Assembly (NCBI GenBank): GCA_963921275.4 | Contig: OZ001293.3 | Span: forward strand, 6,208,001-6,272,000 | From: an uncultured Hormoscilla sp. | GTDB taxonomy: Bacteria; Cyanobacteriota; Cyanobacteriia; Cyanobacteriales; Desertifilaceae | DNA length: 64,000 nucleotides | Direction of reading: 5' to 3' | In this document: positions 15,073 through 18,561 of the stretch, one piece after another | Layout of the letters: each line of letters begins with the position of its first letter | Numbering within the stretch: position 1 is the stretch's first letter | Made by a program: the position numbers and the translations under genes | Notes under the pieces: generated by a model | Seen by the model: only the letters and a program-made list of their open reading frames with translations | Database searches by the model: none | Told to the model about the DNA's origin: nothing

Positions 15073-15455
15073 TAATGCCTCATTATACCAGCAATTTGCT
15101 ATAATATCAATACTGCGGTATTAGTGGTATTATTGCCCTTACTCTGTGTATTTATGCTTACTGCCATCGGCCAGCCCCTGAAACCCTCGGTTTTTCGTTG
15201 GCCCGATCGCCTTTTGGGGCCTCTTCGGGAAAACGCCCGACTAGAAGCACAAAATTTTTTTGCTACCTCCATCTGTACGGTTGACAAATTATTTTATTCA
15301 TGTTAGAGCGGTAAATTTATCCGTAAATTGGCTCAAGAACGAATATTAAGAGTATAATATATGGTGCGATTCGTTCTGATGTAAACCAGTAATGGTGAAA
15401 ATCGGGCCTGGTCTTATTTGCCAGGTAACTTTGGTGCCATGAGGGTTAAATTCCC

Positions 15456-16449
15456 GTGCGATGAGTTCCAGCCTAACGTAGTCATATACGGAACTCTGGC
15501 CTAGGAAACTAGGAACTCTGGTAATCATGGGGGTTTAATTCCCCCTCCCCAGGTACAGGGGTAACCGCGTGAGGTGCTGCGAAGTAACATCATCGTGGTG
15601 CCAAGCGAGGACTCAAATGTAGGATAACTGGCAGCCCAAGCCGGTGACTCTGCTAGGAAAGATGTCCATGGCTAGAACAAGCGAACCTATGTAAACCTCG
15701 TTAAACCCAACCAGCGAAATAAGGCTTAATGCGCTGGAACAAAAGTTAATGCAGTTAGTGTTAATTAGGGAATTGGCTAACATTGTACCCAAATAACTGC
15801 CGGGGAAAAGTAGGGGCCTAAAGGCATCGTGAAATGATACCAGGGAACGAAGTAACCTCAGCGAGAGGAACGAAGTAACCCCCGTGGTGCTGTCCTCATT
15901 TGGACAAGTCAGATGTGCGTCCGCGTAGCGTGCGCGCAGCGCATAGCGCATGCCCATGAGGGGAGAGATGGCCCGAGAAGCTAATGCCTAGGCGGTGTCT
16001 GGAGCATGCCTTGGTGTCTGGAGCACACCGAGTCCTTCAGGACAAGAGTGTGCGGAAGACGCCAAAGTCCTTCAGGACAAGAGCATGCGGAAGACGCCGG
16101 TAATGCCTATGGATACGCAGACGCGGGTCGGTGATACTAGTAAACTATTGGTACAAGTAGCTCTAAAATGTCATAAGCCCATTTACAGCGTTAGCGAAAG
16201 CGAGTTGAGGATTGAGGAATGTTTAACTGGTAAAACGGAGTGTTAAATGGTGATACTAAAGGTTATCCGGCAGCTCCACTCACCAACCAGGAAAGGGGCG
16301 GACGTGCAAGTAGTAAGGGACAATGGGAGTAATCCCTAGTAATCCTACCCGTGAAAGGGGCCTAGTACCCAGTAGCCGTGTGCGGTGAAAGTCGCATGCA
16401 CGGTTCCGAAAGGGAGGGTTGTCCCGCGAGGGACAGCTCGACCCCGACT
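15456..16449 (+). mobile_element. Inner ORF-less group II intron type C (994 nt)
   Basis: GTGCG start, intact D5 AGCCGTGTGCGGTGAAAGTCGCATGCACGGTTC, end CCCCGACT; EBS1 GGGAAT (15768-15773) complementary to upstream ATTCCC. Confidence 0.9.
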
Positions 16450-16909
16450 TCCGCCCAGATACGGGGCTGACATCGGTTCTCAGTGCTACGAAGTAACATC
16501 ATCGTGGTGCCAAGCGAGGACTCAAATGTAGGATAGCTAGTAGCCAAACTGGCAACTCCGCGCTTATTAGAGGTTCATGGTTAGAGCAGGCAAATCCCTG
16601 TAAGTATCGTTAATACTAACCGGTGTAATGGCTGACTAACACCGGCCTAAAATAGGAAAGCAGGCAGCGCCTTAGCTTTCATATGTGGCTAAGGACGTAT
16701 CCGAAAGAACTGCCGGTATATAGGGGAGACCTAAAAGCCTCGCGAAATGGCATCAAGGAACGAAGTAACCCCCACGTCGCTGTCCCCAGGGACAAGTTAG
16801 ATGTAAAGCGCAAGTAAGTGTGGGTGGGAGGGATGTCCTAAGAAGCCAACGCCCAGGGTAATGCCTGTGGATATGCAGACGTAGGACGGATATGGTAAGA
16901 AGCCTTGGG

Positions 16910-17850
16910 GTGCGAATCGTTTTGGCGTAAGTCTGAAATATGGCGATCGCCGGGCTGGTTAATACCAGCAACTCTGGTCATCATGGGTTCAATTCCCCTT
17001 CCCCCAGGTACGGGGGTGACCGCGTGAGGTGCTGCGGAGTAACATTACCGTGGTGCCTCCCGAGGACAAATGTAGGATAAGGTCTCAGCCCAGAGACCGA
17101 CGCCGCATGGCTGCGCCACGCTGCGCGATCGGAAAGAGGCTCATGGTTAGAGCAAGCGAATCCCTGTAAGCATCGTCATCTTAAACAAGCGAAAAGAGGC
17201 TGACACGCTTGGTGCAAAATGCGCACGCAGTCCGCGTATCAGTGGTTGCACGTCACTGATATCGTACCCGAAATGACTGCCGGTGTATAGGGGAGACCTA
17301 AAAGCCTCGTGAAATGATACCAGGGAACGTTCCGGACAAGAGCGGTGCTGTCCAGATGGACAAGTCAGATGTGCGTCCGCGTAGCGTGCGCGCAGCGCCT
17401 AGCGCATGCCCGCGTGGGGAGGGAGGTCCTAAGAAGCTAATGCCCGGGGTAATGCCTGTGGATATGCAGACGTAGGACGGATATGGTAAAAAGCTCTAGG
17501 AGATAGTAGCCCTCTAAACGTGCTTAACCAGTGGCAACACTAGGTAGTAATGATGGACTGAAATCCTAACCGGGTAAAAAATTTAGAGGCCCCATACGGG
17601 CACCTGTTAGTAAAGAACGGTCATAGTGGTTTTCTAGTTCTCCCCCGTAAACCTTCCGGAGTTAGGTACTCAACTAGTTCATGACTGACCATAAAGGGGC
17701 TATATTTCATAGGGCAAGGGACAACGGGAGTAATCCCTAGTAATCCTACCCGTGACAAGGGTTTACCAACCAGTAGCCGTGTGCGGTGAAAGTCGCTCTT
17801 CAGGTTCCGAATGGGAGGATTGTCCCGCGAGGGACAGCTCGACCCCGACC
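16910..17850 (+). mobile_element. Inner ORF-less group II intron type E (941 nt)
   Basis: GTGCG start, colinear with the other introns, D5/D6 at 17773-17850, end CCCCGACC. Confidence 0.87.
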
Positions 17851-18561
17851 AGAAACTAGCCTTAAAAAGTCATAGACTAAGGAGCAATCCTAAAGGATGA
17901 ATGATGGACTAAAATCCTAGCCGGGTAAAAACTCAGAACCCCGAGTAAAAAGTAAATGGGGACCATGTTAGCAAAGAGCGGCTAGTGCGGTTTGCTGGTT
18001 CTCCTCCGCGAACCTTCCGGAGCTAGGTACTAAAACGGTCTGTTGGCTAACCACAAAGGGGCAAAATCTCATGGGGCAAGGGACAACGGGGGTAACCCCT
18101 AGTAATCCTGCTGATGACAAGAGCTTACCAACCAGTAGCCGTGTGCGGTGAAAGTCGCTCTTCAGGTTCCGAAAGGGAGGGTTGGGAAGTGATTCCCAGC
18201 TCGACCCCGACCACAAAGCCTGCGAAAAAGACCAACTTTCTCTCCTCTGAGGGAAGCGCGATCGCCCAGCACAAACCCGATCGCCCCACGGGAGAAGAAA
18301 CCGGGTTTCTACTAAATTTTTATCGTCCCGAGAGGGTGTAAAAGAAACCCGGTTTCTAGCAGACACGCGATCGCCTCAAGCAAGCACCGGTGCAAACCAG
18401 CGGTTTCTGGGCGGAAAAAAATTTCCCAAAAGGGTTGACAATGGAATTCGCAGCCATTAAGATGGTAAAAAAGCGGTCGCAGGATTGCCGTACCTGGAAA
18501 ACTTCATATACGGTACTGCGCGAGCGCAGTTTAATGACACTTTTCACACCGAGGTCCCTGT

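Follow-up and report, generated by a model that had tools for sequence, protein, structure and literature searches.

An ORF-less group IIB intron found almost entirely in one domain I hairpin of its relatives, with a likely preference for a rare form of that hairpin

The intron designated C here, an ORF-less group IIB element nested within another intron (B), targets other introns at a single hairpin of their domain I, as an earlier note on this DNA had proposed: 13 of its 14 copies in the genome lie directly 3' of ATTCCC in that hairpin, and only one is found at a non-intron site. The 14 copies remain from 18 fuzzy matches to the 5' end of C, the other four being relatives. This placement is more than chance would produce; complete top-level introns make up 5.2% of the genome, which contains ATTCCC 6028 times when both strands are counted, and among 472 non-C introns just one starts after ATTCCC, a member of a second lineage, F, at the same hairpin. 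We consider it quite probable that C is a specialist whose guides match this hairpin in its relatives, and that it likely splices and retrohomes by means of a borrowed reverse transcriptase (RT). C is likely a parasite of related introns that prefers a rare form of the hairpin.

Intron load of the genome and anatomy of intron C

The window analysed here is a stretch of 64,000 nucleotides (C1:6208001-6272000) from a genome of 7.03 Mb, in the whole of which a pattern search found 486 5' ends and 395 3' ends of group II introns, mostly ORF-less. These figures are far above 101, the largest group II count previously reported according to PMC8919778, though the counting methods differ and the one used there misses outer introns. 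Judged by the RT family, the relatives of the introns and the gene content, the genome is probably that of a cyanobacterium. One class consists of ORF-less introns of about 750-1000 nt and includes burst families of 138 complete copies (type D) and 73 (type A). Every full-length RT ORF for which a 3' end could be parsed belongs to the second class, of about 2.4 kb, and the one RT ORF of this class that was scored reached 339 bits against TIGR04416 (cut-off 300). Nesting hot spots were observed for family 0, about 768 nt into its hosts (4-5 cases, plus 19 antisense nestings), and for family 1, about 238 nt into its hosts (at least 7 cases). Of the copies within long open frames, those of family 0 are sense in 22 cases and antisense in 29; for family 1 the numbers are 18 and 1.

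In intron C (Table 1) domain V is intact (47.9 bits against Rfam RF00029, at 16371-16448, cut-off 40), and there is no ORF, the longest stop-free stretch being 124 aa, in antisense. The 3' end was placed at T16449, one base past the Rfam hit, on the basis of gamma-gamma' covariation, the last intron base covarying with gamma in 253 of 254 of the genome's ORF-less introns. The pair is present in C, the window copy of which ends in CU, not AY, and excision of C with T16449 included recreates the vacant sequence of B and, at the one non-intron site, the reading frame. Across the ORF-less class, 3' ends of ACU, ACC, AAU or UCC were seen, not invariably AY. The IIB2 consensus for the 5' end is GUGCGAUUC (PMC4649490); host B matches it, while C reads GUGCGAUGA and is nested among families that have the consensus.

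The 993-nt copies of C are 99.3-99.9% identical to one another. Divergent forms (91-98% identity) keep the same target, and several copies have 3' halves derived from other families. Domains II and III (window 15940-16110) contain short, repeated and partly palindromic inserts that are absent from the 753-nt form of C. The Rfam search gave no match to a domain I model. When domain I of C was folded alone at minimum free energy (MFE), the target-type hairpin formed and the EBS1 stem-loop did not; EBS1 was assigned from its position in sister families and from the matches of the sister EBS1s to their own flanks.

Table 1. Intron C, its host and the paired guide and target elements, in window positions
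Feature	Position	Strand	Evidence or remark
Host intron B, 5' segment, ending in the target hairpin	15364..15455	+	vacant sister copy at C1:2751379
IBS2a (-14 A) of target	15442	+	EBS2a/-14 covariation and PMC8643678 rule
IBS2 GGGTT (-13 to -9)	15443..15447	+	pairs with EBS2, in a register checked over the intron types
IBS1 ATTCCC	15450..15455	+	complement of EBS1
Intron C, inner intron, ORF-less group IIB, 994 nt	15456..16449	+	5' GTGCG, fitting the group consensus GUGYG; RF00029; gamma-gamma'
C's own hairpin, vacant	15527..15544	+	-14 G (15530), +1 C (15544)
EBS2a (U), middle base of TTA linker	15702	+	covariation
EBS2 AACCC	15704..15708	+	complement of IBS2
ID3 stem-loop with EBS1 GGGAAT (15768-15773)	15754..15781	+	sister-family position; absent from MFE fold
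EBS3 (A), third base of NANA loop	15808	+	Watson-Crick with +1, 23/26 family votes
C domains V and VI, AGC triad intact	16374..16449	+	RF00029 47.9 bits
IBS3 (host +1 T)	16450	+	EBS3/+1 covariation
Host intron B, 3' segment, carrying intron E	16450..18212	+	domain V mispaired, RF00029 23 bits
Intron E, second passenger of B, unrelated site	16910..17850	+	mispaired domain V, RF00029 20 bits

The mispaired 3' strand of domain V is common to E (17772-17850) and B (18134-18212) and is present in 19 or more copies across the genome; this may be an inactive allele that has spread or else a working variant. Given the state of domain V in B, some hosts at least may be dead. A TATAAT hexamer lies at 15353-15358, 5 bases upstream of B, which may thus have landed directly behind a promoter.

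Guide sequences and the target hairpin

The complementarity between EBS1 and insertion site described in the earlier note is exact, GGGAATT (15768-15774) being the reverse complement of 15449-15455, with C starting at 15456. Its statement that the ATTCCC hairpin is present in all five of the intron types that it quoted also held, each being located in the window: A in the introns from 9750 and 10751, B at 15364, C at 15456, D in the introns from 45012 and, on the minus strand, 33261, and E at 16910. At the 13 intron-borne C insertions the hairpin has the pattern GGGTT-N-R-RTTCCC and lies 84-93 nt into its host, counted from the 5' end. From this position it is presumably subdomain IC1, and its 7-nt loop, U-Y-N-R-A-U-U closed by G-C, may resemble the T-loop of tRNA. 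The sequence pattern and variation of the loop fit the T-loop pattern, and no account of a T-loop in domain I of IIB introns was found in the literature searched. In the ORF class a GTGAAAG loop takes the place of the target hairpin, and none of the 14 genomic copies of C was found in the RT-bearing class. The T-arms of tRNAs were considered as targets and rejected, the 13-base motif occurring in 2 of 54 tRNAs (Gly-TCC and Glu-TTC), both vacant, with C at -14 and G at +1. An array of nine tRNA genes was seen at C1:2339135-2339969 on the minus strand.

Targeting by C has four parts, EBS1, EBS2, EBS2a and EBS3, three of them validated by covariation across the intron families of the genome, and the cognate target reads A GGGTT NN ATTCCC followed by U. 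EBS1 and EBS2 match near-invariant positions of the hairpin (GGGTT..ATTCCC), EBS2 with a mean of 4.7 out of 5 pairs over 7 unique C flanks, and the host range of C is broad because the two loop positions that the guides skip are those that vary among the five types. In IIB introns EBS2a pairs with exon position -14, strictly by Watson-Crick rules, and this pair is required for mobility and not for splicing; EcI5 almost never accepts G at that position (PMC8643678). Here EBS2a and -14 are Watson-Crick partners in 59 of 73 EBS2 types (p=2e-23), so that the evolution of ORF-less introns within one genome backs the EBS2a-IBS2a rule; a protein contact to the -14 A was considered and dropped in favour of EBS2a on the strength of the published rule and of this covariation. 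EBS3, like EBS2a a guide specific to IIB introns, is the Watson-Crick partner of +1 according to 23 of 26 family votes. Preferences at -14 and +1 are partly linked, because the two bases are opposite one another in the stem of the hairpin; the type D hairpin lacks both the -14 A and the +1 U, and that of type A lacks one of them.

Host preference, self-avoidance and rival explanations

Hairpins with A at -14 are few, 12 of the 384 scored; seven hold C, two hold F and three are vacant (two of these with C at +1). Those with G at -14 hold C in six cases as against 363 vacant (one, C1:1540347, lies outside the context filter of the scoring). Occupancy by C is 7/10 at -14 A versus 6/369 at -14 G (Fisher p=9e-10, burst copies not being independent). 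At +1, T is present in 9/9 intact intron-hosted junctions versus 151/370 vacant hairpins (p=4e-4, again with burst copies that are not independent), a count that omits four copies: C1:5193398, with an apparent small deletion and C at +1, and three without a 3' junction of their own. The pairing rules are not absolute, since six copies sit at -14 G, the ectopic copy has G at +1, and two perfect sites are vacant, namely that of B at C1:2751379 and a non-intron site near C1:3627958.

C likely avoids itself. Its own hairpin pairs perfectly at IBS2 and IBS1 and mismatches at EBS2a and EBS3; it is vacant in 13 of the 14 copies, the 14th having no such hairpin by pattern. The argument rests on the EBS2a/EBS3 rule and not on the absence of C within C, which at 0/14 has low power, about 0.5 such insertions being expected without discrimination; the suggestion that C might possibly target itself thus found no backing. 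Nor does C use an abundant family, as had been thought: each of the 12 hosts tested has 18 close relatives at most, and none belongs to the families of 138 or 73 copies. The idea of a safe landing site was weakly favoured, all eight C- or F-bearing hosts with both ends parsed being outside long open frames versus 154 among 242 top-level ORF-less introns that are free of C.

The presumed cycle would begin with transcription of C along with its host and excision of C from the RNA, followed by reverse splicing into DNA, steered by the four pairings, and reverse transcription by an RT borrowed from ORF-bearing introns. EBS2a (U) and EBS3 (A) would select the minority of hairpins with an A...U outer stem pair; here the association is shown by the counts and the cause is presumed. 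The outcome would be that almost all A...U hosts are occupied, insertions into G...U hosts are infrequent, and G...C hosts, C and the largest family included, are so far not hit. C likely would have to exit the RNA before the host folds; mobility of the C-free host would then regenerate vacant targets, and the need of the host for its hairpin would likely preserve them. Precedents are trans-mobilisation (PMC2882425) and the sequential splicing of a twintron (PMC4649490).

It seems improbable that C has no true preference, the large families being empty as too recently expanded and C being able to invade itself. The uniformity of burst families 0 and 1 (median identity 99.75%), the six copies at -14 G, the perfect IBS2 and IBS1 of C's own hairpin and the small expected number of self-insertions would accord with this, and age could be an alternative cause of the emptiness of the burst families. 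However, the 993-nt copies of C are equally young, the enrichment at -14 A is more than 100-fold, and -14 G hairpins with a known +1 have T in 4/4 occupied versus 149/363 vacant cases (p=0.03).

Less probable again, and largely refuted by host diversity, is that a single old C insertion, or a small number of them, spread by duplication, by gene conversion or by the co-mobility of composite twintrons. Introns in this genome do recombine, as seen in the foreign 3' halves of several C copies, and two pairs of hosts share a common type. Nevertheless, ten different 5' types are found among the 12 hosts with intact 5' ends (of the 13 intron-hosted copies, one has a host 5' end displaced by an antisense intron and one a truncated host 5' end), near-identical C copies lie in unlike hosts, and guide complementarity is maintained across the 91-98% divergence. 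The tandem hosts at C1:4584358 and 4581308 hold different forms of C. Also against such spread is the 14th copy (C1:5978581), which lies antisense within a broken ORF at a non-intron mimic of the target, with -14 A, GGG and a pairing IBS1 but with +1 G and two IBS2 mismatches; its junction is precise, and its removal in silico restores the frame. We infer that each C insertion was a separate event.

Least probable of all is broad insertion at ATTCCC-like sites with selection leaving only the intron-borne copies, for which the single ectopic copy and the position of all parsed C-bearing hosts outside long ORFs could be cited, but copies of families 0 and 1 have been retained at numerous sites that are in frame or not in introns, so that selection is not purging such insertions, and 11 of the 14 exact AGGGTT-NN-ATTCCC sites in the genome are intron hairpins.

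Contigs of two other runs, X7 and X8, contain part of C. X7 has a 79-nt piece that spans the C junction, with the flank of the host at C1:5193398, and X8 has the 5' end of C and 11 hairpin bases fused to the sequence of C1:6261614 (window about 53600), apparently by rearrangement or as an assembly chimera; neither has at least 31 matching bases on both sides of the junction.

Lineages, wider occurrence and known systems

In a tree of domain I (42 rows; the program dropped one), the C sequences make up a single clade (100/99) nested in families aimed at other targets (100/94), and C therefore was retargeted. Lineage F groups as sister to its G-type host (100/100) and is distant from C, and its copies, C1:5258757 (IS-broken) and C1:1809083 (truncated), both lie at the target hairpin. 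The one readable F guide has U as EBS2a and A as EBS3 and makes 4/5 EBS2 and 5/6 EBS1 pairs, and F's own hairpin differs (TCAAATT, with -14 G and +1 C). These two copies suggest a second, imperfect retargeting to the same hairpin.

The C junction was not found, by exact patterns, in four congeners that carry the intron class, three matches in a fifth genome being non-introns, or in 400 genomes of the phylum; such searches lose repeats where assemblies are fragmented. Two scans of collections gave 7 genome-contig and 23 metagenome matches, in which the patterns used found neither intron domain V nor a host 5' end. Hairpins of the congeners, where the C junction was not found, are G...C in 40 cases and G...U in 4, with A at -14 in 3; they are mostly G...C, and therefore no escape need be assumed for the large families. 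An arms race, with G...C hairpins as a host escape from C, was thus set aside, G...C being the default in these congeners. The immunity of C probably reflects a hairpin still in its ancestral state.

Intron-in-intron specialists are already known from Thermosynechococcus and Methanosarcina; the domain I hairpin as a target would be new as far as we found, a literature search, with subscription papers mostly outside it, having turned up no intron family aimed at this hairpin. C works like the ORF-less F3 (TeI3) introns of Thermosynechococcus elongatus, which are found within F1 (TeI4) introns (PMC2882425), and combines most copies at one conserved intron site, a complementary EBS, a uniform inner intron and divergent hosts, though it is not of the TeI3/F3 family itself. 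TeI3 targets the start of an ORF, between two ATGs, in domain IV of one ORF-bearing family (PMC2882425), unlike C, which targets a domain I hairpin in many ORF-less families, with a sub-preference at EBS2a and EBS3. In Tr.e.I7/I8 of Trichodesmium erythraeum the inner intron lies in domain I of a IIB2 host, by theta, and sequential splicing has been demonstrated (PMC4649490); the Tr.e.I8 site is probably in the same subdomain as the target of C. That twintron, as described in PMC4649490, is a single locus with ORFs in both introns and no family of repeated insertions.

In the arrays of Methanosarcina acetivorans, as reviewed in PMC4424553, there is, as proposed for C, repeated site-specific homing into other group II introns, outside coding sequence, and nests of up to five renew a perpetual homing site. 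C differs in that no C within C was found (0/14, with low power) and that two positions of its own hairpin depart from the cognate target. The lycophyte cox1i1149g2 invades itself (PMC7049729), while self-insertion was unseen for C.

It is doubtful, though conceivable, that C and F form part of a wider retroelement ecology, in which these two separately retargeted lineages would converge on one structurally constrained hairpin, exclude themselves by single-base guide contacts, spare the RT introns on which they depend and, as they fill the sensitive hosts, influence which families reach hundreds of copies. C itself is a natural example, with strong statistical backing, of a mobile intron that specialises on a structural motif conserved among its relatives, with a host range that can be read base by base, and it offers a system for self-avoidance, the use of an RT in trans and the ordered splicing of twintrons.
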